Shown here: positions 19,048 through 42,268 of the stretch, piece after piece
Position numbering within the stretch: the first letter of the stretch is position 1
Layout: every line of letters starts with the position of its first letter
From: an uncultured SAR86 cluster bacterium
GTDB taxonomy: Bacteria > Pseudomonadota > Gammaproteobacteria > Magnimaribacterales > D2472
Assembly (NCBI GenBank): GCA_902601475.1
Contig: CACKNK010000001.1
Span: 208,584 to 272,583, forward strand
Length of the DNA stretch: 64,000 nucleotides
Reading direction: 5' to 3'
The notes under the pieces: generated by a model
Seen by the model: the letters and a program-made list of their open reading frames with translations, nothing else
What the model was told of the DNA's origin: nothing
Database searches by the model: none
Program-made: the position numbers and the translations under genes

Positions 19048-19062
19048 TTTTATAAGGAAAAC

Positions 19063-20292: not shown

Positions 20293-20295
20293 AAA

Positions 20296-24865: not shown

Positions 24866-25318
24866 TTAAATGTTTCTTTTAGTTGCAAAAAAATCTTTAA
24901 GTAATTCGCTAGATTCACTCTCCAGATAACCACCAGAGTAGTTAACCCTGTGATTTAAAAAATTTTTTTCAAAGAAATTATCAACTGAAACTACTGCGCC
25001 TGTTTTAGGCTCTTTGGCACTAAAATAAAGATTTTTAATTCTCGCATTTACAATTGCCATACAACACATATGACATGGTTCTAAAGTCACATAAATAGAA
25101 GTATCAGGCAGTCTATAATTTTTTAAGATAGCACAAGCAGATTCAATGGCTTCTATCTCAGCATGTCTAATAGGTGAATTTTTTGAAACGCACTTGTTAC
25201 TACCGACTGATAAGACTTCATCGTCCAATGTAATGATGCATCCAACCGGAACTTCATCACATAAAGCAGCATGGTGCGCCTGCTCAATAGCAGCTAACAT
25301 AAATTTACTTTCATACAT
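24866..25318 (-). CDS. tadA: tRNA adenosine(34) deaminase
   Basis: EVPVG, HAE, NYRL, TLEPCHMC and FF..KR. Confidence 0.92.
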   Translation of the reverse strand: MYESKFMLAAIEQAHHAALCDEVPVGCIITLDDEVLSVGSNKCVSKNSPIRHAEIEAIESACAILKNYRLPDTSIYVTLEPCHMCCMAIVNARIKNLYFSAKEPKTGAVVSVDNFFEKNFLNHRVNYSGGYLESESSELLKDFFATKRNI

Positions 25319-25341
25319 TAAATAACTATTTTAAGTGAACA

Positions 25342-25428
25342 TGGTGCCCAGAGCCGGACTTGAACCGGCACGAAGTTGCCTTCGAGGGATTTTAAATCCC
25401 TTGTGTCTACCAATTCCACCACCTGGGC
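25342..25428 (-). tRNA. tRNA-Leu (anticodon TAA)
   Basis: GCCCAGGTGGTGGAATTGGTAGACAC-AGGGA TTTAAAA TCCCT-long variable arm-GGTTCAAGTCC...GGGCACCA, 87 nt with encoded CCA. A TATAAT lies at 25437-25442. Confidence 0.97.
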
Positions 25429-25473
25429 ATGGCTAGATTATAATCGAATTAAAATTTAGGATATATTTATTTT

Positions 25474-26652
25474 CTATTTTAGTATCTTTCTTTTTATAGC
25501 AGGAAAAATGACTAATATTCCTCCTAAAAGATAGCCTGGGAATTTACATAGATCTAATAAAAAGCCAATTAATCCAACTCTCATCCACCAAAAAGGAAAA
25601 ATATTATTAATTGCAAATCCTTTTCTTATTGGAAAGACTATCCCCCTGTAAATAATGCTTACTAGACATAAAGTAAGTACGTATATCTTAGTAATATGAG
25701 GAATGTAAAGAAATGATGACATATCCCAATCAGCAATTCGATCGTTCCAAAAAAATACAAAGTAGCTTATAAAAAATAAAAATATCAGCAGAAAAAATCT
25801 TCCAAGGATCTTTCTAAATATTCGACTAAAAAGCTTTAAAAAGTGTGCAATGATGAAAACTAAGCAAAGTATATAGAAATAGTTTTTGGTTATATCGTTT
25901 ATATAATATGGACTTGAATCCCAACCAACTATTGCATTCCATCGGGGAATTATGAGGGATAATAGCAACAAAAACGTTCCCAGAACAAATGCTTTACCAG
26001 ATGATTGAATATCAACAAGTGCTGAATGCATCTGATAAATGAATTGCCTTTTAGCTTCAATTAAAAATTTTTTTGAAATGCTGTTGTATGTTATCTGAGA
26101 TGTCCTGAATGTAGTGTGGTTATCTGGGAATAAATTTTTAAATCTGTCCCTCCACTCAAAATCTTCACCTGCTCTTACTCCCTCTAAGAAAAATCCGCAT
26201 CTAATGAAATATTCTTTATGCATAACTGATCCAGGCAAGGTTTCAACTGGCTTCTTACCAAATATCGATGCTTGTAATATTTCTTGGAACCCTGTTTCAG
26301 CTCTATAGGTTGTATAACCAAAAATACATTTCACATTTTGATCGAGAGTTGATTTTGCATTACTTAACCAATCATTTTTTGGAATGGTTTTTGAATCTAA
26401 GAATGCAATGAGCTCACTTTTAGCTTGAAGCACTCCATGATTACGTGCCTCTCCAGGATAATAGTCACCCTTAATATAATTTATATTAATTCTTGTAGAA
26501 AAATCGGTACATAAACTCTTAATCCTATTATTGCTTGATGAATCAATAATTATTAATTCATGTATTAACATTCGTTGCTTTACAAGAGCTTTAAGTATCA
26601 AACTAAATGAGTCTAAATACCCCTTTGCAGGAATTATCACTGAAAATTTCAT
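25474..26652 (-). CDS. GT2 glycosyltransferase with a C-terminal multi-TM region
   Basis: FSVIIP, IIIDSS, ARNHG, IAFLDS and GED; hydrophobic C-terminus. Confidence 0.85.
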   Translation of the reverse strand: MKFSVIIPAKGYLDSFSLILKALVKQRMLIHELIIIDSSSNNRIKSLCTDFSTRININYIKGDYYPGEARNHGVLQAKSELIAFLDSKTIPKNDWLSNAKSTLDQNVKCIFGYTTYRAETGFQEILQASIFGKKPVETLPGSVMHKEYFIRCGFFLEGVRAGEDFEWRDRFKNLFPDNHTTFRTSQITYNSISKKFLIEAKRQFIYQMHSALVDIQSSGKAFVLGTFLLLLSLIIPRWNAIVGWDSSPYYINDITKNYFYILCLVFIIAHFLKLFSRIFRKILGRFFLLIFLFFISYFVFFWNDRIADWDMSSFLYIPHITKIYVLTLCLVSIIYRGIVFPIRKGFAINNIFPFWWMRVGLIGFLLDLCKFPGYLLGGILVIFPAIKRKILK

Positions 26653-27506
26653 TGTCCTTTAAAAATATGCCTTAATGGCTCAATAATAAATTTATATAAA
26701 AGAATCTGATAGCTGAGCTTGAGAAGAAATCCTGATGATCTGAAGATAGTTTTTAAATTTATATCAACCCCATCCAGATTGCTAATAAATATTCTTCTTT
26801 TATCAGAAAGATTTGATGAAAAATTCTTGTCCGATGAGTTTTGGCCATCAATTAACCTTACTGTTAAAACACTATTCACATGATAGTGCTGAAGTGCCTT
26901 TGTTTTAAGAAATCTTAAGTACCAATCCCAATCCTGGCCTCTTTTGAATCGCTCACTAAAGTAACCAATGTCATAAAAACTTTCTCTTTTGACACAGCTT
27001 GCAGATGGTAAAAAATGAATTTTTAAAAATAATAGATTCTGAAAAGAAACATCATCATTGGTAAATTTCACTTCATACTCAGCTCCAGAAACATTATTTT
27101 TTTGTATAAAATTGTGTGTAAAAAAGTCATATTCAGGAAATGTACTAATAATATTAAACATTTTGATTAACTTTGAAGGCATGAAAATATCATCACTATC
27201 AAGGAAGAGCAGCCATTTTCCTGATGAAGCATCAATAGCATAATTTCTTGATCTACCTGAACTACCTTGGTTTTCTGATTTTGGTATTTCTACTACTTGG
27301 GTATTTATATTTTTGTGTAAAGTATTCTCAATATTTTTTTCGATAATTAGTTTTGTTTTCTCAAAAGGTAATTTTGAATAAGCATCTACTGCAAAAATTA
27401 TTTCATAGTCATGAAAAGTTTGAGATTTAATTGAATTTAATAGCTTTGATAAAAGTTCTTCTCTATCCTTAAATGGAATGACTATTGAAAAAAATGGTCC
27501 CTGCAT
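26649..27506 (-). CDS. GT2 glycosyltransferase
   Basis: FSIVIP..DR, SQTFHDYEII, SRN, FLDSDD and QDWDW. Confidence 0.9.
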   Translation of the reverse strand: MQGPFFSIVIPFKDREELLSKLLNSIKSQTFHDYEIIFAVDAYSKLPFEKTKLIIEKNIENTLHKNINTQVVEIPKSENQGSSGRSRNYAIDASSGKWLLFLDSDDIFMPSKLIKMFNIISTFPEYDFFTHNFIQKNNVSGAEYEVKFTNDDVSFQNLLFLKIHFLPSASCVKRESFYDIGYFSERFKRGQDWDWYLRFLKTKALQHYHVNSVLTVRLIDGQNSSDKNFSSNLSDKRRIFISNLDGVDINLKTIFRSSGFLLKLSYQILLYKFIIEPLRHIFKGQ

Positions 27507-27533
27507 TAAATCTATAATATCAATTAAGCAGCT

Positions 27534-28655
27534 TTATGGAATGTCTTGTAAAGATGATTCAAGACTATTGCTTATTACTTCAGCAACAAACATGTTTCCT
27601 TTCCCATTTAGGTGAACAGAATCATAGAAGTAATCTTTGTTCTTTGGAACTTTACTTTCAAGATCAATAATTGGGACTTCGTAATTTATGGCTACCTCTT
27701 TTATAATCTTATTAAACTCTTTGTACAATTCTACAAAAATAAAATAGTCAATATTTGGTGATTTCGAATTATATAAACTTATGATTTCATCATCAGATCT
27801 GCTAAATCTGTTTGGCTGAGTTAAAAGAATTGGTTGAGTATTCCACGATTTTGAAATTTGTATTAACGATATTATTGCGGATCTGAATTCACTCTTTATA
27901 GTTTCTGCTTGGTAAGCATCAAGCTTTCTCCCTTCCCTATAAAGTGCAAATTCATCAATCTTTACTTGATTATTTCTTCTTATTTTATTGATAAAACTCC
28001 TAGTATTTGGAAGAAAAGAGTTTAGTAAGCTTTTGGCAAGATCTATGAACATGTCTTTTTGAGTCTTAGTTATTATGATCTCTCTTGTTCTTGGAGCCTC
28101 CCAATAAGAGTATGTTTTTGAGAGCAATGAAAGATCATTTATCCCATGCATAAAAATTACTAAATCAGGTTTGAGTTTTATGCCTTTGGCTTGAAAGGAT
28201 AAAAGTGAATGCAGTGCATGATTACCAGAAACACCAGCATTGTAAACATTAATATTTCTACCAGTTTTTTCTTTAAGAATTGCTGAAACCAAATTTGGGA
28301 ATCTTTTTTCTTTAGAAATGCAAAGATTTTCTGTAGTACTTCCACCAAAGAAAATTATCTCAACTTCGTTATCTTTAACTGCTTCATTCTGAATTAATCC
28401 ATTCTTATCTAAAAGCAAAAAATTATTTCTTTTATCAGCTTCACTCAAATCTTTGCAGACATCCTCTGGAGGATATATTTCAGAAAAGGGGCTATGTTCT
28501 CTTAGATGTATATATCTTTCGTTTCCATAAATGCTTGGTTTTTCACCAGTCAAGATACCTAAGACAGAATCGAATGCTTTAATGCTAATTAAAAAAATGA
28601 ATAAGAGAATAAATAGAAATATAAAGTTAAAAAATTTGGTCTTAATCGAGCTCAT
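27534..28655 (-). CDS. Membrane-anchored SGNH/GDSL hydrolase
   Basis: N-terminal TM segment; FGGSTT, NAGVSG, GIND and DSVH blocks. Confidence 0.85.
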   Translation of the reverse strand: MSSIKTKFFNFIFLFILLFIFLISIKAFDSVLGILTGEKPSIYGNERYIHLREHSPFSEIYPPEDVCKDLSEADKRNNFLLLDKNGLIQNEAVKDNEVEIIFFGGSTTENLCISKEKRFPNLVSAILKEKTGRNINVYNAGVSGNHALHSLLSFQAKGIKLKPDLVIFMHGINDLSLLSKTYSYWEAPRTREIIITKTQKDMFIDLAKSLLNSFLPNTRSFINKIRRNNQVKIDEFALYREGRKLDAYQAETIKSEFRSAIISLIQISKSWNTQPILLTQPNRFSRSDDEIISLYNSKSPNIDYFIFVELYKEFNKIIKEVAINYEVPIIDLESKVPKNKDYFYDSVHLNGKGNMFVAEVISNSLESSLQDIP

Positions 28656-30474
28656 ATTTATTTTTATAGTTAGTTAGATTTTCTTTACTTTGTTGATCTT
28701 TGAAACAAATAAAGTTGTTAATTATTAATACATCTAAATTTGTACCCATGAAACATTTGTATGCATCTTCAGCATTTTGAACAATAGGTTCACCTCTGAC
28801 ATTAAAGGAAGTATTTATTAGAATTGGGCATCCAGTTTTTAACTTAAACGATTTTAAGATGGTATGAAATCTAGGATTTATCTTTTCTCTAACAGTTTGT
28901 ACTCTTGCACTATAATCAATGTGTGTAACTGCTGGAACTTCAGATCTTATTTGATTAACAATTTCATTAATATCTGAATTTATGTCCTCGCTGACTAAAA
29001 TCTGCTTATCTTTATTTAGTTTTGAAACTTTAAGCATGTATGGGCTTGGAGATTTAATTTCAAACCATTCAGAAGCATCATCTTCTAAAACAGCAGGAGC
29101 AAATGGCCTAAAAGATTCCCTAAACTTAACCTTAAGATTTAGATCTTTTTGCATAGTTGACTTTCTAGGATCGGCAATAATACTCCTGTTTCCTAAAGCT
29201 CTTGGGCCATACTCCATTCTTCCATTCATATGACCAATAGCCATTCCAGCAGTTAAATTCTCAGTGATGATTTCGATTAATTCAGCTTCTTCGTGCTTTG
29301 TAAATGTGGCATTCATTTTTTTAAGTTGAGATTCAACTTCTAAATCTGAATATTCTGGCCCCAAATAAGAACCCTCCATGTCGTCCTCAAGATTAATTTT
29401 TCTCTCAGATCCAAGAGCAAGATAGTTAAAAGCTAGAGCTGCTCCTAATGCGCCTCCTGCATCTCCAGCTGCAGGCTGGATCCAGATATTATCAAATATT
29501 TTTTCTTCTTCAAGCTTCCCATTTGCAACACAATTCAGTGCTACACCTCCGGCCAAACACAAATTATTCATATTTGTACTTTGACGAATATATCTAGCCA
29601 AGTTTAAAACAATTTCTTCTGTAACATTCTGAATGGAGGCAGCAATATCCATTTCTCTTGAGGTAAGATCTTGCTCAGGTTTTCTTGGCGGGCCTTCAAA
29701 TAAATCATTAATAGCTGATGATGTCATTGTCAGGCCTTGACAATAATTAAAATATTTCATGTTGAGATGAAAAGAGCCATCATCATAAATTTTTATAATT
29801 TTCTGTCTGATAATATCAGCAAACCTTGGCTTACCATAAGGAGCAAGACCCATTAGCTTGTATTCTCCGGAATTGACTTTAAACCCGCAAAAATATGTAA
29901 ATGCAGAATAGAGTAAGCCTAAGGAGTGTGGAAATTTAATTTCTTGTTTTAATGTAATTTGACTTTCTATGCCAACTGAAACTGAGGTAGTTGTCCATTC
30001 TCCAACTCCATCCATTGTAAGTATTGCTGATGAGTTAAATGGGGAAGGGTAAAATGCGCTTGCGGCATGACTTAAGTGGTGATCAGAGAAAAAAACTTTC
30101 TTTTCAGGGTTATCAACTCCACAATCTCTTAAATGCTTTATAAGCTGTGATTTTTGAAAAAGCTTCTCTTTTATCCAAAGCGGCATTGCACTTAAAAAAC
30201 TTCTAAAACCAACTGGAGCGTAGGCTAAATAGGTTTCTAATAATCTTTCAAACTTTAAAAATGGCTTTTCATAAAATACAAAATGATCAACGTCCTTACC
30301 TTGAGATTTTAAAAAATTTAGGCAGTAAATTAATGCATTTTCTGGAAAGTTACGATCATGCTTAATCCTTGTGAATCGCTCTTCCTGTATTGCAAGAATA
30401 ATTTTGTTATTCTCAACTAAAGCAACAGCACTATCATGATAAAACGCTGAAATACCCAGAATGACCTTTGACAT
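28642..30474 (-). CDS. O-carbamoyltransferase (NodU/CmcH/SxtI family)
   Basis: ILGISAFYHDS, EERFTRIKHD, HHLSHAASAF, GEYKLMGLAPYG, AGGVALNC, GPRALGNRS, RESFRPFAP and NTSFNVRGEP. The real start is probably the ATG at 30474; the ORF-track extension to 30576 overlaps the next gene. Confidence 0.93.
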   Translation of the reverse strand: MSKVILGISAFYHDSAVALVENNKIILAIQEERFTRIKHDRNFPENALIYCLNFLKSQGKDVDHFVFYEKPFLKFERLLETYLAYAPVGFRSFLSAMPLWIKEKLFQKSQLIKHLRDCGVDNPEKKVFFSDHHLSHAASAFYPSPFNSSAILTMDGVGEWTTTSVSVGIESQITLKQEIKFPHSLGLLYSAFTYFCGFKVNSGEYKLMGLAPYGKPRFADIIRQKIIKIYDDGSFHLNMKYFNYCQGLTMTSSAINDLFEGPPRKPEQDLTSREMDIAASIQNVTEEIVLNLARYIRQSTNMNNLCLAGGVALNCVANGKLEEEKIFDNIWIQPAAGDAGGALGAALAFNYLALGSERKINLEDDMEGSYLGPEYSDLEVESQLKKMNATFTKHEEAELIEIITENLTAGMAIGHMNGRMEYGPRALGNRSIIADPRKSTMQKDLNLKVKFRESFRPFAPAVLEDDASEWFEIKSPSPYMLKVSKLNKDKQILVSEDINSDINEIVNQIRSEVPAVTHIDYSARVQTVREKINPRFHTILKSFKLKTGCPILINTSFNVRGEPIVQNAEDAYKCFMGTNLDVLIINNFICFKDQQSKENLTNYKNKYELD

Positions 30475-30476
30475 CG

Positions 30477-30626
30477 TTAAAAAATTGTATAGATAAAAGG
30501 AGCAAGTACTGATGTCTGTGCGAAGATTAGAAGAGCTCCCAATGCTAGCAAAATTAAAACTATAGGACCTAGCCATAACTTTCCTCTGGATTTAAGAAAG
30601 GTATATAACTCCTTTAAAAGCTCCAT
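30477..30626 (-). CDS. Small membrane protein, SxtK/DUF5989-like (49 aa)
   Basis: Below the ORF-track cutoff. Manual translation: MELLKELYTFLKSRGKLWLGPIVLILLALGALLIFAQTSVLAPFIYTIF. The C-terminal APFIYT.F motif and its position between sxtJ-like and carbamoyltransferase genes support the call. Confidence 0.85.
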   Translation of the reverse strand: MELLKELYTFLKSRGKLWLGPIVLILLALGALLIFAQTSVLAPFIYTIF

Positions 30627-30629
30627 TTT

Positions 30630-31007
30630 TTAAAATTGGTTCTTGAAATAATTTAGATCTTTTTTTAAATTTTGCATATTTATCCAAGCCGAGTTGTATG
30701 ACTTCCTAATCTCAAGCTCATCTCTCCCAAATACTCTTAACAATATACCTATTGGTGAAAAAATTAAAAAAAATATAATCCCCATTACTATAGGATTAAT
30801 AACTTTCCCTAATAACAATCCCAAGCTCATCCAAATAATTTTTGGATAATAAAGAATCCTCTCAAAGAAAAAACTAACCGGCAATAGAATAACGGAGATA
30901 ATAAAAAAAAATGTTGTTAATTTTGGAGACCCTGCATAAGCAAAAAATATTGATACAACTAAAAATATTCCAGCAAAAGATAATCCGAACTTTTTATTTG
31001 TGATCAT
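30630..31007 (-). CDS. SxtJ-family membrane protein
   Basis: KKFG, WMSLG..LG.VINPI.MG.IFF..FSPIG, GRD.L and C-terminal NQF. Confidence 0.85.
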   Translation of the reverse strand: MITNKKFGLSFAGIFLVVSIFFAYAGSPKLTTFFFIISVILLPVSFFFERILYYPKIIWMSLGLLLGKVINPIVMGIIFFLIFSPIGILLRVFGRDELEIRKSYNSAWINMQNLKKDLNYFKNQF

Positions 31008-31030
31008 TTTAAATGTTCTCTGTTAAAAAA

Positions 31031-31729
31031 TTAAAAACCAAAATTATATTTTAACTCTTTTAAAGCGAATTCAGGACCTGGTATGTTAGGACTAAATGAA
31101 TAACCATGCCTAGAGTACATTCCATAGATAATATCTGGGTTTCTATCAAATAAATATTTTGGTGTTAGCTTCTCTATCATCTTAGAGTTTTGTAGGGCTT
31201 GTTTATAAGTAAATACATTCATATCTTCATCAATAAGTTTTAAGTTAGTAATAGAGTCTAACCCCATCCATCCCTTTGAGGTCAGGACCTCTGAGGCTGC
31301 ATGAGAACTTTGATTTAATGGGATAAAGTTCATTAAAGATATGCCCTTTGACTCAATTATAAAAACGTGACGTGTTTTGAAACCCAAGCTATTTAGTAGC
31401 TTTTCATTGAATCTAGATCTTTCAAAACAACATCCATAACCCCTTTTATAAAAATCCAATGGTTCTATTGAATTTCCTTTTGGTACACAGCAGTCATAAG
31501 TAGGACAAACATCTAAATAGTCAACGCTTAGAACAGCATTCTGAACTGAATCAATGCATCGTATTTCATCATCAAAATTGTTTAATTTATTGCAACTTAA
31601 ATAATTTTCTACCTTCGAAAATGCTGTAAAGTCATCATGAGTGAGATTTGGACTTACTTTGTTAATATAAAGGTATCCAAGGAAAGAAATCATTGAAGCA
31701 ATGGAAAAAAGAAAAAGTTTAAATTTCAT
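31031..31729 (-). CDS. Transglutaminase-like (Cys-His-Asp) protein with an N-terminal anchor
   Basis: GYGCCFERS...LGFKTRHV...SHAASEV...GWMGLD fits the papain-like triad pattern. Confidence 0.7.
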   Translation of the reverse strand: MKFKLFLFSIASMISFLGYLYINKVSPNLTHDDFTAFSKVENYLSCNKLNNFDDEIRCIDSVQNAVLSVDYLDVCPTYDCCVPKGNSIEPLDFYKRGYGCCFERSRFNEKLLNSLGFKTRHVFIIESKGISLMNFIPLNQSSHAASEVLTSKGWMGLDSITNLKLIDEDMNVFTYKQALQNSKMIEKLTPKYLFDRNPDIIYGMYSRHGYSFSPNIPGPEFALKELKYNFGF

Positions 31730-31791
31730 TTATTTGAATTATATACTTTTTTTACAATACTAAAGAAAAGCTATTTAATGTTATCGCGCCA

Positions 31792-32673
31792 TTAGAAGAC
31801 ATCAATAATACCAAACGAAATATCAATATTTTTACATTCAGGAAAATTTAAGAACTTAAATATAAATGGATTATTCGATGATTTTCTCCAAAATTTGAAT
31901 AGTTCGTTGTAACGATTAGTTTCACATGAGCTGAATTGAAAATAAGCAACATCTAAGTTTTTTAATTGTAAAATGATGCCGCGCATATCTTCCAATGAGT
32001 CAATTTTCATACCACCGACATAGAAAAAATTGAAACTAATTCCTAAATATTTTTTATGCAAGATTCTACCCCATAAATAAGACTTGTTTATTTCAAACTC
32101 ACATACCCCGCTTCTATGAGTTTTTTTTAGAGAATAAACTTCTTTTTCGTTGACAGTAATCAGCCCATCTTTGGGATGAATCAAGCCTTTAAAGTCATTC
32201 AAAAATAAGTCTGTTAAAAATCCCATGTTTGGTAGCTGAACATAATTACAACTTTTTTCAACAAATCCCAGCTTGTGAATAAAAATTGGCCTCGAGTTAT
32301 CATTTGGTAATCCAAAGATCATTCCTGCATCTCTTCCTTTTAAAATATCCTCTGCTTTTTTTTGAATATTGACAAAAACTCCTTTTCTCTGATGATTGGG
32401 ATGTGTAGCTGACCAACAGCTCTGATAACAATATTTTTCATCTCCATTGTATGTGAATTTATTCCCTATAAAACCATTACATCCAATGAATTCGTCCTCT
32501 TCATGCGCAACTAAAAAAATTGAATTATTTATATTGTTGGTCAAAGAAATATTTCTGTGAATGTGGAATTCATCTAGTAATTTGGAGTCGCCATATGATT
32601 CCTTAATTAAGTTCCTAACTTTAAGGTCTATTGCATGATCTCTCATATCAACTAATGAAATTTTATAATCCAT
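31792..32673 (-). CDS. GNAT family N-acetyltransferase
   Basis: SATHPNHQRKGVF acetyl-CoA motif and FGLPNDNS.PIF..KLGF. Confidence 0.8.
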   Translation of the reverse strand: MDYKISLVDMRDHAIDLKVRNLIKESYGDSKLLDEFHIHRNISLTNNINNSIFLVAHEEDEFIGCNGFIGNKFTYNGDEKYCYQSCWSATHPNHQRKGVFVNIQKKAEDILKGRDAGMIFGLPNDNSRPIFIHKLGFVEKSCNYVQLPNMGFLTDLFLNDFKGLIHPKDGLITVNEKEVYSLKKTHRSGVCEFEINKSYLWGRILHKKYLGISFNFFYVGGMKIDSLEDMRGIILQLKNLDVAYFQFSSCETNRYNELFKFWRKSSNNPFIFKFLNFPECKNIDISFGIIDVF

Positions 32674-32675
32674 TT

Positions 32676-33584
32676 TTAACTTAATAATTTAAAGAAACCA
32701 TTAATAAATTTATTAAAAAAATAATCATTGCCCTTTCCATCAATAGCAATAAATTTATGATTTTGAAATTCACAAATGGAAATATGATGCCTACCCAAAT
32801 TACCAAATGATTCAATGTTGCTACAAGATATTTTTTTAACTATGACTTTTTCCTGGAAATTATATTTATCCAAATTAATAATTTTTTTTAGCATAATTTC
32901 CTTTCCATAAGTACCTGAGCAGTCTTGTGTGAATCTGTAATGAGTTCCATCTATTTCTATTGGATTGCCTGCATTCCTAATTTTTTTTGATTTTATCTGA
33001 TTATCCATTGGATGGATTGACCATGGCCCGCCGTCTAAATTATTAGTAAATAACAATCTAAGCCTATCTCTGAATGTTCCTAGCAAGTAAAATACAGAAT
33101 TAGATTTTATTAATATTGGATCCTCAATTGGTTCGTCGCAAATAGTCGAGAACCATGATAATTGGTTTGGAAAATCATTAAACCTATATATTTCGGTTTT
33201 ACCGCTTTCAATTTGTTCTGGAATCATAAAAAAATCATCTTTTTCTTGGAAAATAAATGGAAAAGACAAATGAGAGCTTTTACGTAAAGTTACTCCATGA
33301 TCTGTCCATGACAACCCATCATCAGTTGACCAGCAATTTATAAATCCAGGCCGGTTTATCATTTGTACTTCCGCAAATAAATACAATATTTGTTGTCTTC
33401 TAACCAAGAAAGGATCTGCAATTGTATGAATATGACTCTTAGATGTTCTTATTTTTGGACGCCCAAATATTTTAGATAAATTTTTTGGCTCATTATTAAT
33501 AATATTAAAACGAGAATTCTCTTTAAAAATAGCTGTAGACCAAATAATAGACATTGTCACAATTATTACATATCTATCTAACAA
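32676..33584 (-). CDS. Beta-propeller protein resembling the GINT1 N-terminal / GH43-like fold
   Basis: ADPFL, HLSFPFIF, FMIPE, W..HP, RNAG, QDCSGTYG and HH; start codon uncertain. Confidence 0.65.
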   Translation of the reverse strand: MLDRYVIIVTMSIIWSTAIFKENSRFNIINNEPKNLSKIFGRPKIRTSKSHIHTIADPFLVRRQQILYLFAEVQMINRPGFINCWSTDDGLSWTDHGVTLRKSSHLSFPFIFQEKDDFFMIPEQIESGKTEIYRFNDFPNQLSWFSTICDEPIEDPILIKSNSVFYLLGTFRDRLRLLFTNNLDGGPWSIHPMDNQIKSKKIRNAGNPIEIDGTHYRFTQDCSGTYGKEIMLKKIINLDKYNFQEKVIVKKISCSNIESFGNLGRHHISICEFQNHKFIAIDGKGNDYFFNKFINGFFKLLS

Positions 33585-33666
33585 CTAAATTAAAATTTGA
33601 AATTACTATGAAGTAAGACAAAATCTATTTTTTAATTTTTAAATAATTCCTTTAAAAACTAGGTGT

Positions 33667-35673
33667 TTATTCTAAAAGTTCTTTGGCGATTAACTTAGCT
33701 CCTTCTATAGATACATGATCATCATCGTAGTACAAGAGTATTTGATTCTTTTGTGTAATGCATCTTCCAATAGATTCTTGCAAGTTACAAAATAGTATAT
33801 GAGGCTCATATTTTAAAATATTATTTTTATATACTAATTTATTAAGCGCATTAAGAGTTGACTTATTTCTTTCCTTAAACACTTCAAATGAAGTTGATGC
33901 ATGAAGAGCATCAATTTTTTTTTCTGGATTATAAATGTATTTAAGTAATAGTCTTTTAAGTGGGTCCCAACCAACTTCAGGTATTGGATATATTATTGTT
34001 ATATTTATACCTGCTTGTTGAAGTATATTGATTGTCTCATCTAATTCTTTGGTTATGCCTTCTATAGTTCCATAATCATTTGTATATGTATTCTGATAAA
34101 TTACGCCTTTACCTGGCTCAATGCCGCCCTCCATATTATCAAATCTACTTCCTTGATATGTTAGAGGCCATCTTGCGGCTAAATACAAATTCTTTGGTAG
34201 TTTTTTGTTTTCAATAAGATTAATTATTAATTTTCGCATTTTTAAGCAACGCTCTTGATTTTTATCTTTTGGTATGTAGGCACCATCACCAAGGGTTGGA
34301 AAGCATGCAGTTGAAGCCAAATTAAGACCAGAAATTTTTAGTTCCTTTGAAACCAAGCTCAAACCTGGAACTAAGGCCCTCGCATGACTGTCTCCAAAAA
34401 TTGCAAATATAGGCTCATTCTCAGGATCGCCAAACTTACAATTTTTTAATATCAATTCAATATCAAGATTATCATTTTTAGCATCATTACATTGAGAGGT
34501 ACTCAAAACTGAATCTGCTTTAAGTTTCTCCAATTCTATAAATTCTTTAGAAAATCTTGTATTAAATCCATCTGCTTGATTAATCATAGAGCCTATCAAA
34601 CAAAAGAATAATATCCCTGCAAGTGAGAAACTAAATACAGTCTTGCGAGATATTGTTTGTTTATCTCTAAATGGTTTTTCAACCCATCGCCAGCTTATGT
34701 AAGCCATTATCAAAGATGACAAACATAATAATAACAATACTATTTCTGATATTTCACCCAACAATCTATGTCTTGCAAATGCAAGAATCGGCTGATGCCA
34801 TAAGTATGCACTATAAGATATCAACCCAATCCCAACTATTATGCGTGCACTTAGTATTTTGTGTATTAAGGTTTGGGGTACCGCTGTGAGAATTAGCAAA
34901 GCAGTACCAATGGTTGGTACTAAGGCATATAGACTTGGAAATGGTGTGTTCTTGTCATAAATTGCGATTGAATAAACAATCATTGCAAAACCTAATAAAC
35001 TTAAGGTCTGATTGATTAATGGTGATTTGATGTATTGATTTTTTTGGAGATAGAAAGCTAAAAAAACGCCGATTAATAGCTCCCAGCCTCTAGTAGGCAA
35101 AAGGTAGAAGTTTGCGCTTGGCCTAGAAAAGGCAAACCATTGGGCAAGAGATAAACTCAAGAGAAAAATTAAAGCTAATAACAGTAATAAATACTTTTTT
35201 GGAAGATTCCAAAAAATCATTAAAAACAGTGGAAACAAAATATAATACTGCTCCTCTACTGCAAGACTCCAAGTATGCAGTAAAGGTTTTAATTCAGAAG
35301 CAGTAGCAAAATAACCGCTTTCAATCCAAAAAAGTATATTTGAAGAAAAAGTAGCTACTGCTATGAGGCTTTGACCAAAATCTTTTAAGTCTCCTGGGGT
35401 CAACCAAAACCATGCAAATGGTATTGAAACCAACATGACAAAAAATAACGCTGGAAGAATTCTTCGAGCACGGCGTTCATAAAAATTGATTAGACTGAAA
35501 TTATCACGCCCCATTTCAGAAATAATGATGGATGTAATGAGATAGCCGCTGATTACAAAAAAAACATCAACGCCTACAAAACCACCTCCAAAAAGTTCAA
35601 ATCCAGCATGAAATAAAATAACTGGCAAAACTGCAAGCGCTCGAAGACCATCTATTTCTGCCCTATATTTCAT
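33667..35673 (-). CDS. OafA-like O-acyltransferase (AT3 + SGNH), copy 1
   Basis: YRAEIDGLRALAV, GVDVFFVISGYLI, RRARRILP, HTWSLAVEEQYY; SGNH motifs GDSHA and DDDH. Confidence 0.92.
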   Translation of the reverse strand: MKYRAEIDGLRALAVLPVILFHAGFELFGGGFVGVDVFFVISGYLITSIIISEMGRDNFSLINFYERRARRILPALFFVMLVSIPFAWFWLTPGDLKDFGQSLIAVATFSSNILFWIESGYFATASELKPLLHTWSLAVEEQYYILFPLFLMIFWNLPKKYLLLLLALIFLLSLSLAQWFAFSRPSANFYLLPTRGWELLIGVFLAFYLQKNQYIKSPLINQTLSLLGFAMIVYSIAIYDKNTPFPSLYALVPTIGTALLILTAVPQTLIHKILSARIIVGIGLISYSAYLWHQPILAFARHRLLGEISEIVLLLLCLSSLIMAYISWRWVEKPFRDKQTISRKTVFSFSLAGILFFCLIGSMINQADGFNTRFSKEFIELEKLKADSVLSTSQCNDAKNDNLDIELILKNCKFGDPENEPIFAIFGDSHARALVPGLSLVSKELKISGLNLASTACFPTLGDGAYIPKDKNQERCLKMRKLIINLIENKKLPKNLYLAARWPLTYQGSRFDNMEGGIEPGKGVIYQNTYTNDYGTIEGITKELDETINILQQAGINITIIYPIPEVGWDPLKRLLLKYIYNPEKKIDALHASTSFEVFKERNKSTLNALNKLVYKNNILKYEPHILFCNLQESIGRCITQKNQILLYYDDDHVSIEGAKLIAKELLE

Positions 35674-35680
35674 GAGTAAA
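34600..35680 (+). repeat. Direct repeat copy A (1,081 bp)
   Basis: Matches 36646-37726 at offset 2046 with no mismatch noticed by eye. Confidence 0.93.
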
Positions 35681-35763
35681 GGATTTTAACTCAACTAGGT
35701 AAAAGAAAGGCCGAATAAAAATATATAAGCTCATTAAAAAATATGAATAAATATTAATTAAAC

Positions 35764-37719
35764 TCAGTAATTGAAAATTTGATCTATAGTTTCATAGAGT
35801 TTATTTGCCCCGATAATTGAGAGGTGATCATCATCGAAATAATAACTCTCATGTAAGTTGCCCATTGAGCAAACCTCTTTATTACAAAACTTATCTTTTA
35901 AATCATAATAATTAAAATCAGACAGCCTCTCTTTAAAGACAGATTCGTAATTCTTTTCCATGTCATGAAATTTTTTTCTTGGAACTGACAGGAGGTTGAG
36001 AAGTTCATTGTCTTGTAAGATTTTTAAGTATGAAGATCGGGGTGGGTATATCTGATGAGGTGGTTGAGAAAATAAGTGAACGGGAATATTGTTGTTAATA
36101 TAAAAATTAAGAGTTTTATTAAATCCTTCTTCAAAAGCAGATATGCTATTTTTTTTATTAAAAGGGCCATATTTAGAGCTTGATATAAACTTCATATGAG
36201 ATCTCTTATATTCATATTCAGTATAGAAACTCCATCTAGCAGATAAAATGATTCCTTTAACGGACTCTCTTACAGCAAAATCTGCAACTCTTTTATTCAG
36301 TTCGTAACAATTATTCTTTTCTTGAAGCTCTTTTTTACTTGATGGATAGATTCCTAAGAATGGAGGGCACGCAGAAGTTCCTGTAAAAAAAACACTTATG
36401 TTTTGAGATTTTGCCACTGAATCAATGACATATCTAAGCGATGAAGCATGCGAATCTCCAAATACTATGTAATCTAATTCATTTTTACTGACTCCCAAAT
36501 AGCAACCCCATTCTTCATTGATATGGTTGTAAGGAACTTGAAAACAATTTTCGTCCTTGGGCATATCAAATGAATTAATTAATTTTTCAGTAAATCCTAT
36601 CCTATCGGGAAAACCCTTATTAATATGCAAGGATGCTCCAAATATACAAAAGAATAATATCCCTGCAAGTGAGAAACTAAATACAGTCTTGCGAGATATT
36701 GTTTGTTTATCTCTAAATGGTTTTTCAACCCATCGCCAGCTTATGTAAGCCATTATCAAAGATGACAAACATAATAATAACAATACTATTTCTGATATTT
36801 CACCCAACAATCTATGTCTTGCAAATGCAAGAATCGGCTGATGCCATAAGTATGCACTATAAGATATCAACCCAATCCCAACTATTATGCGTGCACTTAG
36901 TATTTTGTGTATTAAGGTTTGGGGTACCGCTGTGAGAATTAGCAAAGCAGTACCAATGGTTGGTACTAAGGCATATAGACTTGGAAATGGTGTGTTCTTG
37001 TCATAAATTGCGATTGAATAAACAATCATTGCAAAACCTAATAAACTTAAGGTCTGATTGATTAATGGTGATTTGATGTATTGATTTTTTTGGAGATAGA
37101 AAGCTAAAAAAACGCCGATTAATAGCTCCCAGCCTCTAGTAGGCAAAAGGTAGAAGTTTGCGCTTGGCCTAGAAAAGGCAAACCATTGGGCAAGAGATAA
37201 ACTCAAGAGAAAAATTAAAGCTAATAACAGTAATAAATACTTTTTTGGAAGATTCCAAAAAATCATTAAAAACAGTGGAAACAAAATATAATACTGCTCC
37301 TCTACTGCAAGACTCCAAGTATGCAGTAAAGGTTTTAATTCAGAAGCAGTAGCAAAATAACCGCTTTCAATCCAAAAAAGTATATTTGAAGAAAAAGTAG
37401 CTACTGCTATGAGGCTTTGACCAAAATCTTTTAAGTCTCCTGGGGTCAACCAAAACCATGCAAATGGTATTGAAACCAACATGACAAAAAATAACGCTGG
37501 AAGAATTCTTCGAGCACGGCGTTCATAAAAATTGATTAGACTGAAATTATCACGCCCCATTTCAGAAATAATGATGGATGTAATGAGATAGCCGCTGATT
37601 ACAAAAAAAACATCAACGCCTACAAAACCACCTCCAAAAAGTTCAAATCCAGCATGAAATAAAATAACTGGCAAAACTGCAAGCGCTCGAAGACCATCTA
37701 TTTCTGCCCTATATTTCAT
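35764..37719 (-). CDS. OafA-like O-acyltransferase (AT3 + SGNH), copy 2
   Basis: N-terminus identical to copy 1 up to ...AGILFFC, followed by a different SGNH domain with GDSHA and DDDH. Confidence 0.92.
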   Translation of the reverse strand: MKYRAEIDGLRALAVLPVILFHAGFELFGGGFVGVDVFFVISGYLITSIIISEMGRDNFSLINFYERRARRILPALFFVMLVSIPFAWFWLTPGDLKDFGQSLIAVATFSSNILFWIESGYFATASELKPLLHTWSLAVEEQYYILFPLFLMIFWNLPKKYLLLLLALIFLLSLSLAQWFAFSRPSANFYLLPTRGWELLIGVFLAFYLQKNQYIKSPLINQTLSLLGFAMIVYSIAIYDKNTPFPSLYALVPTIGTALLILTAVPQTLIHKILSARIIVGIGLISYSAYLWHQPILAFARHRLLGEISEIVLLLLCLSSLIMAYISWRWVEKPFRDKQTISRKTVFSFSLAGILFFCIFGASLHINKGFPDRIGFTEKLINSFDMPKDENCFQVPYNHINEEWGCYLGVSKNELDYIVFGDSHASSLRYVIDSVAKSQNISVFFTGTSACPPFLGIYPSSKKELQEKNNCYELNKRVADFAVRESVKGIILSARWSFYTEYEYKRSHMKFISSSKYGPFNKKNSISAFEEGFNKTLNFYINNNIPVHLFSQPPHQIYPPRSSYLKILQDNELLNLLSVPRKKFHDMEKNYESVFKERLSDFNYYDLKDKFCNKEVCSMGNLHESYYFDDDHLSIIGANKLYETIDQIFNY

Positions 37720-37726
37720 GAGTAAA
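36646..37726 (+). repeat. Direct repeat copy B (1,081 bp)
   Basis: Matches 34600-35680. Confidence 0.93.
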
Positions 37727-37741
37727 AAACATAAATATTTG

Positions 37742-37763
37742 TTAATAGATAACTATCTATTAA
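37742..37763. promoter_or_regulatory. Perfect inverted repeat upstream of acyltransferase copy 2
   Basis: TTAATAGATA-AC-TATCTATTAA. Confidence 0.45.
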
Positions 37764-37872
37764 TCATTAAAAGGTCATTATATATTTTTGACTAAATATA
37801 TTTCTAAAAATATATTATTAAAGTGTAAAGTGATTGAAAATATCTAAACTTACAAAATGTTTTAAGAGAATC

Positions 37873-38895
37873 TCAAAGCTTCTTGCAAATTACATGTATT
37901 TGAGAACAATTATGATTTTTATCAATGATCTCTTGTAGCTGATCAGCATATTCAGAAAATTCATTTTCAAACCTTTGAATAAAATAATCAGAGCTTCCTG
38001 TTTTTTGCAAGCTAATCTGGATAGAGCGTTTTAAGTCTTGAATGTCAGTTCCAAATCTCCACTCCGCAATGGGCTTAACTCCAAGCTTTTTATTGAGGAT
38101 TTCAAGTGATTTTTCAGTAAATAGATGAGTATGTCCTCCACTTAAATGTCTGGGGAGAACATTCTCAAAAACAGATTCAATTGGAACAGATAAGCCATAT
38201 ATAGGAACGGAATAATATAAATATTTAAATGAAGATAAGTTAATAGCTTCAAGAAATTCATCCAAATTAGATATATGTTCCATAACTGCCATTAAAGATA
38301 AAACCTCAACATCTAATGATTTTATATGACTTGGAACGCGTTCAATATCTATTGATTCAAGGGGCCTTATGTCAAAATTTTTTTCGATAATACCGTTACC
38401 TGCATTGATTAGGGTTTTATTAACGTCTCCCCCTTTTGCATCAATGCCTCTGCTTAGAAAAGAATTGACAAGAAATCCTAGACCGCAACCAAAATCATAA
38501 ACTGATGAAATTTTTTTTGATAATTGATCAATCAGAAAATCAGCTTTGGGTAGATAAATATGATTAATACGATCATTGTAATTATCTTCTAAATAAAGCT
38601 TTGAATAATCAGATCCATCTTCATTTGAATATATTTCCTTAGCAAAATTAAGGGTGTCATCATGAATGCCATTCAAATGATCGCACTTGCGACAAAACTT
38701 ATATGAAACTAAATGCTTTGTAAAATCTATAGTTTCAGGCAGTTTGGATCCACATAATTTACATTTGTCTCTAGGAGGCTGTTTGAGGTAAACCCTATTC
38801 CTATCAAGTTCTGCTTTTAGCAAAGATTCATTGCGGTTGTAAAAACTTGATTTAATGTTCCTATAAAAATTTGATGATTTAGAGTATTTTTTCAT
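37873..38895 (-). CDS. Class I SAM-dependent methyltransferase with N-terminal Cys motifs
   Basis: CKLC and CRKC; VYDFGCGLG, VMEH and H..LFT. Confidence 0.82.
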   Translation of the reverse strand: MKKYSKSSNFYRNIKSSFYNRNESLLKAELDRNRVYLKQPPRDKCKLCGSKLPETIDFTKHLVSYKFCRKCDHLNGIHDDTLNFAKEIYSNEDGSDYSKLYLEDNYNDRINHIYLPKADFLIDQLSKKISSVYDFGCGLGFLVNSFLSRGIDAKGGDVNKTLINAGNGIIEKNFDIRPLESIDIERVPSHIKSLDVEVLSLMAVMEHISNLDEFLEAINLSSFKYLYYSVPIYGLSVPIESVFENVLPRHLSGGHTHLFTEKSLEILNKKLGVKPIAEWRFGTDIQDLKRSIQISLQKTGSSDYFIQRFENEFSEYADQLQEIIDKNHNCSQIHVICKKL

Positions 38896-38924
38896 TCTTA
38901 AGATCTTGTAGTAAAAATTAGTTT

Positions 38925-39716
38925 TTAATTTTTTTCACGATTTGTCCAAAATATTTTCTTTAAAACGCGAAAAGGTACCTTTAAAAATTCAGGAAAATAT
39001 TTGAATTTTATAAATGCCTTTACCCTTGATTCAAGATAATAAAAATAGCCGTTCTTTTGCGAATATTTTTCAAAATTTCTTTGATACCTTAGCTTAAGAG
39101 TGGAGGCATCTAATCCATCTTCATGAATACCAAATAATCTTAGCCAGTTAGCAATTCTTGCATTATGAGATGAACCAAACATTACATCTTCAGAGAAACA
39201 AAAATTGTTTAAGCCAGATTGACGTAAACGCTTTCTTATCATTCTTTCTTTATATTCATGGCCCTGAAACTCTCTGATATCAAAAGTAACTAAAAGAGAA
39301 TATATATTACTGAGTAGATTGGATTTAAGGAGACTATCTATTATATAAATTTCACTTCCTTCACAATTTGTTTTCATTACAACGAAATCATTAATACCAA
39401 TGTTTTCATTTAGCCATTGAGAGGCATCTCTTAATTCAATTTTTTCATATTGATCTGAGCAATTATCATTATTTGCTTCCTCAAAAATTGATCCAGACAA
39501 AGTTCCAGGCATATATAATGGAACCCTATCATTAGAATTACTTAAGCCAAATGGACATATTTCAACTCGACTATCTTGAGAAAATTTTTTATTAAGGATG
39601 TTTAATGCGTGGTTAGAAGGTTCAAAACAATAAACCTTATCAAATTTATATTTTGGCTTTAAAACTTCATCAAGAGTTTCTCCAAAATGAGAGCCAACAT
39701 CAAGAAATATGCGCAT
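38925..39716 (-). CDS. FkbM-family methyltransferase
   Basis: FLDVGSHFG, CFEP, PFGLSN and MKTNCEGSE. Confidence 0.85.
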   Translation of the reverse strand: MRIFLDVGSHFGETLDEVLKPKYKFDKVYCFEPSNHALNILNKKFSQDSRVEICPFGLSNSNDRVPLYMPGTLSGSIFEEANNDNCSDQYEKIELRDASQWLNENIGINDFVVMKTNCEGSEIYIIDSLLKSNLLSNIYSLLVTFDIREFQGHEYKERMIRKRLRQSGLNNFCFSEDVMFGSSHNARIANWLRLFGIHEDGLDASTLKLRYQRNFEKYSQKNGYFYYLESRVKAFIKFKYFPEFLKVPFRVLKKIFWTNREKN

Positions 39717-39823
39717 AGAAAATGGTCTTAAATAAATACATAATTATATCATTAGTAATTTTTAAAATTTGAGTTAAAAACATATCCTTAACTACTTTTT
39801 GAATAATATCTTAAAATTATAAT

Positions 39824-40795
39824 ATGTCAGTTTTAATTCTTGGGTATGGGAATAGATCTAAGAGCAATATTATTCCAGCCTTAAAAGCCCTAAACAAAAA
39901 AATCTATATCTATGGAAGAAATCCGCTAAAAACACTTGAGTTATGCAAACAGACTAATTGTATGCAAGTTAAAAGTCTTGATAGTTTACCTCAAAGCGTA
40001 GACATGATTTGTATCACAATCCCGTCAGATGTTTGTTTGGGCTATATAAATCAAATTAATAGCGATATTTGTTCAAAAAGTATTTTATATGTTGATACGC
40101 CTTTTTTTGGAAGTTTTAAAAACTTGAAACTTTTAAAACTTCAAAATAAATTTAGAAAAACCCTAGTAACTGAGGATTGGATAAGTAAGCCTTCTTTTGA
40201 AATAGTGAAAAGTCTTGCTTTGAAAAATAACCTTGGAGAATTAAAAGAGATCATTTTTAATAACTCTGGCTATTTTTATCATTCGCTCGCAATATCTCGA
40301 AGACTTTTTAAAAGAAAAATAAGCTTTGCATATTACAAAAATGGCAATTATTACTTTAATTTTGGATTAAAGAAAATGAGTATCATTAATCCAAAAAAAT
40401 ATGAAGATTGCTCAACAATCTATAAATTCAAACGCGGCATAATTGCTGATAGGGCAAATCATGAAGTGAAAATTGGCAAATGTGATCACGTCCTAACTCG
40501 ATCTCTAAGTGGTAAATCTTTGTCTTATGAATATTCATCAGACCTAACAAAAAATAAAAAGATCTTTAGTTTTCCACACTCATTAATTGAAAAAGATACT
40601 AACTATGAGAATATCGAAAAGTTTTTATCTCTTCAAAAGAAATTTACAGAAAATGAAATAGAATACTCTTTTGAGGAAGGTGCTTACGATAGTTTAATTT
40701 TTAATATCATTAATAAAACAAATTTTTTTATAGATATCTCTCTTAGAAATAATTCTCTCATTTATTTTATTTTAAAACTCTATGGCAAACTTTAA
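39824..40795 (+). CDS. Putative NAD(P)-dependent oxidoreductase (divergent Gfo/Idh/MocA-like)
   Basis: N-terminal Rossmann ILGYGNRS...IPAL, YGRN and VDTP in place of EKP. Confidence 0.5.
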   Translation: MSVLILGYGNRSKSNIIPALKALNKKIYIYGRNPLKTLELCKQTNCMQVKSLDSLPQSVDMICITIPSDVCLGYINQINSDICSKSILYVDTPFFGSFKNLKLLKLQNKFRKTLVTEDWISKPSFEIVKSLALKNNLGELKEIIFNNSGYFYHSLAISRRLFKRKISFAYYKNGNYYFNFGLKKMSIINPKKYEDCSTIYKFKRGIIADRANHEVKIGKCDHVLTRSLSGKSLSYEYSSDLTKNKKIFSFPHSLIEKDTNYENIEKFLSLQKKFTENEIEYSFEEGAYDSLIFNIINKTNFFIDISLRNNSLIYFILKLYGKL

Positions 40796-42251
40796 TACAT
40801 TCAAAAGCAAGCTAGACTTTGAAGAATTTTTTACTAAAAATAAATCAGAAAGCTTTATAGCGATCATTGGGTCTGGATTTGCATCCTTGTCATTAGTTAA
40901 AAATCTAAACACAAAGAAGATAATTGTCTTTGAAAAAGGTGAAAGGTTTAATGATCAATCCCTTCGTGGGCTAAAAATAGAAAATCTTGGTAATTATCAA
41001 CTAAAAGAAAATTCAATAGAAGAGTCTATTGGCGGATCATCAAACACATGGAGTGGAAGATTATCTGAGATGAATAAAGGAGAATTTTGTAGCACTAATA
41101 ATATTTGCATAAATATTTTTAATGAACTTATTAAAACTTTTTACAAAAAATCATGGAGATTTTTTGGATTTAAAAATTTTAAACAGATTGAAAGAGGCAA
41201 AAATGGTTATACAGAAAGAATTTTGCCGAAGCAATACAGCCCAATGAGAATAATTGAGTCCTTGAAAAGACTTAATATTAAATTAATTTATAAAGCCAAT
41301 GTCATAAATGTTGGTGAAGATTATTATGGAACGTTTATGAATGTAGTTTTTAATGATTTATTTGAAAAAAAAATATACTTTAAAAAAGTTGTTCTTGCCA
41401 ATGGAGGCATTAATTCATCGTTATTGCTAAAAAAATCATATCAAGATGGTTGCTTGAAGCCCAATAAATCTGAGCTCATTTCAAGTCATTATATGAATCA
41501 TCCAAAAATTATTTTTGAGAGGTTTTTTTCTAATCTTCCAAAAGAATCACCATTCTTTCTAAAAAAAAAATATGACTTAAACTTTTATGGTTATAGCCTA
41601 TCAAAAAGTATTAAAGAGGAAAGTTTTTTAAAAAATACTTATTTCACATTTCATCCAATTGCAATTGGTCAAAATACAATTGAATATGAGTGTGCAGATG
41701 AAATCATTCGCAACAAAAAGAAATGTTTTAAAATAATATTAGACTACATTAAAGAAAATAATTTTAACTTTTTTTCTATTTTAAAAATTTTTTATTTTTT
41801 GGGATGTAAGTTAAGAATTTTTAATATTCGAATTAAAAATTATGACTTAGAATATTTTTGTGAAATGCTCCCAAATAAAAGAAATAAAATATATGCTCAC
41901 CAAAACTCTATCAAGAGTGAAATAAATCTCTCAGAGGATGATTTCATAACTCTTGAGATCCTTCATCAAAAACTTGTTTCTGAATTTCCTTTAAATGTAA
42001 GAAGTAAATATAAAGATATAAATTTTAGAGATAAAAAATTTATTGATTCAAGTCATCATTTAGGCGGCATACCTTTGAGGGATGAACAAAAAAAGACTGT
42101 TATAAACGCTGACTTAAAAATTGTTGACTCAAAAAATATTTATGTTTGCAGTTCATCAGTATTTCAGAGTTCAGGCAGCTCAAATCCAACTCTTACGATT
42201 GTTGCTCTAGGTATAAGGCTAGCTGAACATCTGAATAATCTAAAAAAATAA
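40782..42251 (+). CDS. GMC-family FAD oxidoreductase
   Basis: IIGSG, IGGSSNTWSG, VVLANGG, YMNHP, SHHLGG and SGSSNPTLTIVAL. Confidence 0.85.
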   Translation: MANFNTFKSKLDFEEFFTKNKSESFIAIIGSGFASLSLVKNLNTKKIIVFEKGERFNDQSLRGLKIENLGNYQLKENSIEESIGGSSNTWSGRLSEMNKGEFCSTNNICINIFNELIKTFYKKSWRFFGFKNFKQIERGKNGYTERILPKQYSPMRIIESLKRLNIKLIYKANVINVGEDYYGTFMNVVFNDLFEKKIYFKKVVLANGGINSSLLLKKSYQDGCLKPNKSELISSHYMNHPKIIFERFFSNLPKESPFFLKKKYDLNFYGYSLSKSIKEESFLKNTYFTFHPIAIGQNTIEYECADEIIRNKKKCFKIILDYIKENNFNFFSILKIFYFLGCKLRIFNIRIKNYDLEYFCEMLPNKRNKIYAHQNSIKSEINLSEDDFITLEILHQKLVSEFPLNVRSKYKDINFRDKKFIDSSHHLGGIPLRDEQKKTVINADLKIVDSKNIYVCSSSVFQSSGSSNPTLTIVALGIRLAEHLNNLKK

Positions 42252-42268
42252 TTTTACCTATTATCTTC

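Follow-up and report, generated by a model that had tools for sequence, protein, structure and literature searches.

Enzymes of the O-carbamoyltransferase family form carbamoyl-AMP and transfer the carbamoyl group to a hydroxyl. One bacterial member, Pseudomonas aeruginosa WapO, is described as a putative carbamoyltransferase for a heptose of the lipopolysaccharide core (PMC8005017). In saxitoxin clusters the genes sxtI, sxtJ, sxtK and sxtL travel together, and the functions of SxtJ and SxtK are given as unknown in the sources consulted (PMC2679770, PMC3037375, PMC2684587, 10.64898/2026.06.11.731795). The D-alanylation of teichoic acids by DltX-DltB-DltD and the O-acetylation of peptidoglycan by PatA-PatB share an acyl-shuttle motif, FxYxxF, on a microprotein or tail lying outside the membrane; in DltX and PatA the tyrosine of this motif is reported to receive the acyl group, which the serine of an SGNH protein then takes off (PMC12148441). 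Here we analysed a window of 64,000 nucleotides (the whole stretch studied) from an uncultured SAR86 cluster bacterium (contig CACKNK010000001.1, positions 208,584 to 272,583), where one run of genes encodes an SxtJ-like membrane protein (J), a small peptide (K), an O-carbamoyltransferase (I) and an SGNH protein (S).

The preliminary description of this stretch had proposed a general cell-surface machine in which the transferase would load a small membrane carrier and the SGNH protein would pass the group to a glycan. The relay itself gained strong genomic support from the tyrosine motif of K and the linkage of SGNH genes, whereas a glycan as the general acceptor did not. Judging from the sequences, we put at about 0.6 the probability that J, K, I and S form a relay in which I would load carbamoyl on the K tyrosine and S would hand it to a periplasmic acceptor.

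The four genes are the sxtI, sxtJ, sxtK and sxtL types outside any toxin cluster. J belongs to the SxtJ Pfam family and I carries the sequence GPRALGNRS, while the kinship of S with SxtL and of K with SxtK is by type only. In contrast to the saxitoxin cluster, no toxin pathway accompanies them, as had been stated earlier: the Pfam scan of 54 open reading frames (ORFs) of the window recognised no sxt pathway around the module, and the amidinotransferase PF02274, the only other sxt-type family searched genome-wide, had no match in the host genome (1.35 Mb, 81% complete). The likeness to Dlt and PatAB lies in the membrane-anchored SGNH partner with intact Ser and His and, as regards K and DltX, in motif and layout only. 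By Pfam, J has no relation to DltB; instead of a thioester, carbamoyl-AMP made by a soluble Kae1/YrdC enzyme would be the donor; and the module has no MBOAT. The MBOAT family PF03062 had no match in the window or in the 81%-complete genome, and it occurred in 6/120 K loci (5/80 in set A and 1/40 in set B, defined below). Most likely, the module works like Dlt and PatAB without being a member, since the missing MBOAT places it outside the MBOAT-SGNH shuttle class.

The tyrosine motif of peptide K

At its N-terminus K has an amphipathic helix, followed by a basic RKK patch, a single transmembrane (TM) helix and a 14-residue tail running to the C-terminal FIYTIF. It is predicted to be a single-pass microprotein with the N-terminus in and the C-terminus out; the positive-inside rule, together with the I-J-K fusions described below, would place the tail in the periplasm. 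We take K to be of the same family as cyanobacterial SxtK. The sxtK gene is listed with 165 nt (PMC2679770), a length compatible with K. A search of the PDB with the K profile found neither a DltX nor an MBOAT chain and gave PsbJ alone (E 0.6), and K had no match in plasmid or phage collections.

Among 129 K homologues (those of the 120 main loci in sets A and B, plus extras), 124 end in FxYxxF. The tyrosine is present in 128, the sole exception looking frameshifted, while the threonine of the motif is present in 122 and gives way to Ala, Ser or Val in intact peptides. Thus, where a C-terminal Tyr/Thr had been suggested as the carrier residue, the tyrosine stands and the threonine does not. 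An FxYxxF ending was found in only 9/18,519 other ORFs of the same loci: four MBOAT-sized membrane proteins (three matching the MBOAT profile), three examples of a second TM peptide type, one MBOAT fragment and one K copy. Since four of the nine are MBOAT-sized, they provide an internal positive control for the motif search.

The second peptide type (L056:5297-5449:+, also in L003 and L058) is a TM microprotein of 50 amino acids, not of the DUF5989 family, that ends in EPFIYQVF. It sits between two SGNH genes and a polytopic membrane protein of 840 amino acids (L056:5465-7987:+) whose middle domain resembles spermidine synthase (Atlas score 0.99; about half of the members match PF01564). This cluster adjoins K and a convergent J-I pair, and may be a further tyrosine-shuttle system or provide a second carrier.

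Linkage of J, K, I and S across genomes

To describe the linkage we used three sets of loci: set A, the 80 best among at least 120 confirmed K loci from a GTDB scan, spread over many phyla; set B, 40 loci from 38 K-positive genomes of the host's class; and, as a control, set C, 40 loci of a lower-scoring carbamoyltransferase subtype. Sets B and C were chosen for long contigs, and kin are not independent in any of the genome counts. The K/J/I module was found in 56/401 genomes of the class and is widespread in non-cyanobacterial genomes. I flanked K in 108 of the 120 loci, and J did likewise (72/80 in set A and 36/40 in set B for each), while J and K were found in 0/40 control loci. The carbamoyltransferase scores were bimodal, and K was present in 50/52 genomes bearing the high-scoring I subtype.

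The linkage of SGNH genes in other genomes had been set beforehand as a test of the relay, which came through it. A local profile, biased by its training on sets A and B, detected SGNH genes in 42/80, 16/40 and 0/40 loci of sets A, B and C, respectively; the Pfam profile PF13472, trained elsewhere, gave 8/40 against 0/38 controls in a coordinate count that left two control loci uncovered. Furthermore, we built an independent S profile only from 24 of the 28 module-adjacent SGNH proteins of set A. With thresholds picked after viewing the list, no more than five scored candidates in each genome and G039 excluded, it matched 53/55 K-positive versus 76/344 K-negative genomes at E<=1e-12, 46/55 versus 14/344 at E<=1e-16, 37/55 versus 4/344 at E<=1e-18, and 22/55 versus 2/344 at E<=1e-25. 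Four of 40 relatives carry K, in every case accompanied by J and I and by a neighbouring SGNH gene (the one in L247 matching only at E 6e-4).

S retains Ser106, Asn173 and His348 as well as Gly144 of block II. Among the aligned S proteins the catalytic Ser is kept in 66/66 and the His in 65/66, and 63/65 S proteins of K loci bear an N-terminal TM segment. I, J and K are probably a conserved generator; S varies, often occurs in several copies and probably determines the acceptor.

Run against the PDB, the S profile gave its best match, over the full length and at E 1.6e-25, with CgnD of the crocagin cluster, the solved structure nearest to the S subfamily; the same cluster encodes a carbamoyltransferase, CgnI, acting on an Ile-Tyr-Trp core (PMC10070186). 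This brings in a reading borrowed from peptides that are made on the ribosome and modified after translation, where K, or a peptide cut from it, would be the end substrate and S a CgnD-like peptidase releasing a short modified peptide. We regard it as highly improbable: K is near-invariant across phyla and lacks precursor-like variation, and its type of tail is also fused to enzymes of 600-1100 amino acids. CgnD itself, as its description has it, turns over very slowly and gave no detectable binding to the proposed substrate (PMC10070186). CgnJ and CgnK were considered as SxtJ and SxtK homologues and discarded, being listed there as methyltransferase-like and nuclease-inhibitor-like (PMC10070186).

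Fused tails and the proposed relay

Natural fusions were sought in a set of 151 proteins, namely the L193 protein and its 150 best 50%-cluster representatives. The L193 protein (P0030 family; P0030 at L193:6355-9648) has 1097 amino acids and no TM segment, and joins an SGNH domain, a carbamoyltransferase and a helical domain ending in SIYVMF; its 16-kb neighbourhood contains three other TM-anchored SGNH genes and neither J nor K. An AlphaFold2 (AF2) model of this S-I-tail fusion had a predicted template modelling score of 0.91, with the tail at low confidence (predicted local distance difference test 55-62). A metagenome scan with its SGNH domain gave zero matches, and a protein search with the tail region returned only the query itself. 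The set includes two I-J-K, about ten I-J, four I-TM-S and two I-J-TM-S fusions, along with soluble I-S (three) and S-I (13 or more) forms. The I-TM-S proteins (P0103, P0112, P0123, P0135) branch near K-less carbamoyltransferases in trees.

A Yxx[FY] terminus was found in 13/151 proteins of this set, 11 of them without K or TM, compared with a background of 6/1414 ORFs of the host genome, 0/40 control I proteins and 0/115 ordinary K-type I proteins. A second group (P0066, P0196-P0199) bears a short xYTLY tail directly on I. A quick tree splits the tail-bearing enzymes into two groups or more, which would mean four changes of the tail, at least two of them forced. Among the soluble S-I enzymes, the tail is found on five that are full-length and intact, and it is absent from all six with decayed catalytic motifs. 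The latter (P0038, P0041, P0042, P0075, P0096, P0162) keep the SGNH Ser and His and are possibly pseudo-enzyme partners that borrow a carrier in trans. For the xYTLY type, the metagenomic locus L254 encodes S, a J-like protein (E 2e-8) and I ending in LYTLY, with no K; L255, taken up as another such locus, proved a chance match. In the S of L254 a soluble N-terminal part precedes two TM segments, so its SGNH domain would lie on the cytoplasmic side together with the tail.

The soluble S-I-tail fusions and L254 indicate that such a relay can run entirely in the cytoplasm. One can therefore picture a relay on the cytoplasmic face, with the K tail re-entrant, or K and S inverted, and the acceptor modified before export; the hydrophobicity of the K tail, far above that of a simple linker, would suit it. 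Such an arrangement is nevertheless improbable for the ordinary module, as positive charges precede the TM segment in K and in nearly all S proteins, and in the I-TM-S fusions a single TM segment separates I on one side from S on the other.

I consists of Kae1-like and YrdC-like domains, has zero TM segments and keeps its metal, ATP and carbamoyl-phosphate motifs intact. It matched the O-carbamoyltransferases TobZ, GdmN, NovN and VtdB in the PDB (E 7e-89 to 2e-60), and scored 161.7 bits against the cut-off of 1000 of the NodU NCBIfam equivalog. Thirty-one residues are common to K-linked and tail-bearing I and rare in K-less I, which shared ancestry alone could explain. K-linked I proteins also have a conserved C-terminal xLD (window 28642-28655) that may be a docking signal. 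According to the AF2 model and the charge profile, J contains two TM helices and an amphipathic helix, plus a third hydrophobic segment with basic residues on both sides and an invariant Pro, both ends of which are predicted to be cytoplasmic. In the alignment P85 is invariant and R5, P49, W59 and F125 are each conserved in at least 90%. The J C-terminus (window 30630-30640) has a conserved Phe (108/120), often as xQF, and may likewise be a docking signal. J likely anchors I at the membrane, since it is fused to I and persists without K.

In the proposed relay, I would first act in the cytoplasm, forming carbamoyl-AMP out of ATP and carbamoyl phosphate; a carbamoyl-phosphate synthase is encoded in the host genome. 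J would keep I at the membrane, as the I-J fusions suggest, and would probably let the hydrophobic tail of K reach I, this being the weakest step. Tyr46 of K would then become an aryl carbamate, in keeping with the DltX/PatA motif and with the tails that soluble I proteins bear. To a serine hydrolase, an aryl carbamate is an activated donor. Ser106 of S would accept the group and pass it to a periplasmic hydroxyl. The likeliest acceptor in the SAR86 genome is a surface glycan that the neighbouring AT3-SGNH proteins also decorate, and in other genomes it may be something else.

Several observations weigh against this scheme. The predicted topology sets the K tyrosine outside and I inside, so loading requires some way across the membrane, and J shows no evident channel, a fold search with its model finding generic helical hairpins only (best Z 8.6 over 46 residues). 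S adjoins the module in only 29/80 (A) and 16/40 (B) loci. Block II keeps its hydrolase-type Gly in S and in 43/66 aligned proteins, unlike PatB-type SGNH transferases, where it is described as swapped for Ser or Asn (PMC12148441). CgnD is reported to be a slow leader-peptide hydrolase (PMC10070186), and SxtL has been put forward, as a proposal, as a decarbamoylase (PMC2679770). As for the tails, two intact S-I fusions (P0034, P0040) are tail-less; the six dead ones are probably one lineage (five tested as one clade), so tail loss may be a single event; and the K-less tailed-I case is one locus, L254. Finally, co-occurrence of the four families with glycosyltransferases had been suggested as a check. 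The families are indeed linked to each other, but glycosyltransferases or ligases are no commoner near K (40/80 in A and 9/40 in B, that is 49/120) than near K-less carbamoyltransferases (27/40), and two of the four relatives' K loci have no glycosyltransferase among the ORFs scanned; a universal glycan acceptor was therefore rejected.

Some of these points would fit a scheme of direct transfer. TobZ, GdmN, NovN, VtdB, NodU and WapO are the same two-domain ATP-dependent carbamoyl-adenylate enzyme as I and, to our knowledge, act without J, K or S. I, which retains the full TobZ fold and motifs, could similarly carbamoylate an acceptor facing the cytoplasm, for instance a lipid-linked sugar; direct transfer has been proposed for WapO and is known for TobZ and NodU. 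J and K would only anchor or activate it, the K motif would be a docking peptide, and S would serve in the periplasm as decarbamoylase or editor, the role proposed for SxtL. No membrane crossing is then necessary, the Gly of block II is accounted for, and PMC2679770 proposes just such a division, with SxtI, J and K transferring and SxtL decarbamoylating; the loss of sxtL along with a truncated sxtI in L. wollei, as far as it is described, fits this scheme and the relay equally well. We nonetheless consider direct transfer unlikely. It leaves unexplained why Tyr is invariant in an FxYxxF tail predicted to be periplasmic, why soluble I carries a tail of this kind and dead ones do not, and why a synthase should be fused repeatedly to the enzyme that erases its product. 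Nor is S found near the K-less carbamoyltransferases of glycan loci (0/40, 0/38).

Going back to the relay, a broader statement seems to us evenly balanced between true and false: the FxYxxF tyrosine shuttle would be a general group-transfer module not tied to MBOATs, adopted here by a soluble ATP-driven carbamoyltransferase, with a fused tail in cytoplasmic forms and a free membrane microprotein plus SxtJ for delivery across the membrane.

The locus, its island and the meaning of the relay

The coordinates are collected in Table 1. The run had been described as tightly packed, with a 49-amino-acid peptide missed by the ORF track and two GT2 genes following the SGNH gene, and all this was borne out: J to S and both GT2 genes are real and lie on the minus strand, with gaps of 3 nt (J-K) and 2 nt (K-I), an overlap of 14 nt (I-S), a gap of 27 nt (S-GT2) and an overlap of 4 nt (GT2-GT2). 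The longest I ORF begins at 30576, within K; the homologue-like start MSKVILGIS corresponds to the ATG at 30474. A promoter scan gave 41 sites versus 41.7 expected. Among contigs from RNA libraries, one of 176 nt matched S exactly, and the others were short pieces from other organisms.

Table 1. Features of the carbamoyl module and its surroundings (window coordinates)
Feature	Position	Strand	Description
J	30630-31007	-	125 aa; PF19588 SxtJ, E 9e-9
K	30477-30626	-	49 aa; PF19451 DUF5989, E 6e-21
K C-terminal FIYTIF (FxYxxF motif)	30480-30497	-	Tyr46 codon 30489-30491
I	28642-30474	-	610 aa; PF02543+PF16861; TobZ/NodU-type O-carbamoyltransferase
S	27534-28655	-	373 aa; PF13472/PF00657; N-terminally anchored SGNH protein, proposed final transferase
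GT2 glycosyltransferase	26649-27506	-	Pfam; co-oriented; possible maker of acceptor
GT2 glycosyltransferase	25474-26652	-	Pfam; co-oriented; weak homologue in the same island of G402
Glycan-modification island	25474..42251	.	variable, between tadA and guaA; lower GC
AT3-SGNH acyltransferase pair	33667-35673, 35764-37719		tandem, inside island

The label of a glycan island was also a fair one: besides the two GT2 and two AT3-SGNH genes, this lower-GC stretch encodes two methyltransferases, a GNAT, a GINT1_N-like protein and a GMC oxidoreductase, and the Pfam scan of the window ORFs recognised no flippase or polymerase in it. The tandem AT3-SGNH pair and the carbamoyl module in one island may be two tyrosine-based relays sharing a polymer. 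In four genomes of the same genus the tadA-guaA interval measures 9.5 to 35 kb, with differing, mostly glycan-related content. The interval (window 24866-42269; L250-L253, L247) is a hypervariable glycan-decoration island: G401 has phosphonate genes (phosphoenolpyruvate mutase) there, G402 genes for nonulosonic acid and capsule, and G408 FkbM and GT2. Elsewhere in the window (12308-21381) lies a carboxylase cluster for acyclic terpene utilisation (atu/liu-like) with AtuA, which belongs to ordinary metabolism.

A full-text literature search, with subscription papers, including Schultz 2023, outside its scope, returned no description of such a carbamoyl relay or of DUF5989. If the broader statement on the shuttle is true, bacterial envelope acylation would have a third architecture next to MBOAT-SGNH and AT3-SGNH, the first with a carbamoyl-tyrosine intermediate, SxtL- and CgnD-type SGNH proteins then being transferases and not hydrolases. 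The relay would explain how an ATP-dependent cytoplasmic group reaches extracytoplasmic molecules without an MBOAT or AT3 protein, and would give one explanation for sxtI, J, K and L travelling together and for the poor hydrolysis by CgnD. The soluble one-chain fusions of the L193/P0030 family make the chemistry testable without membranes. Two families of unknown role, SxtJ and DUF5989, present in many phyla, would acquire a testable function.

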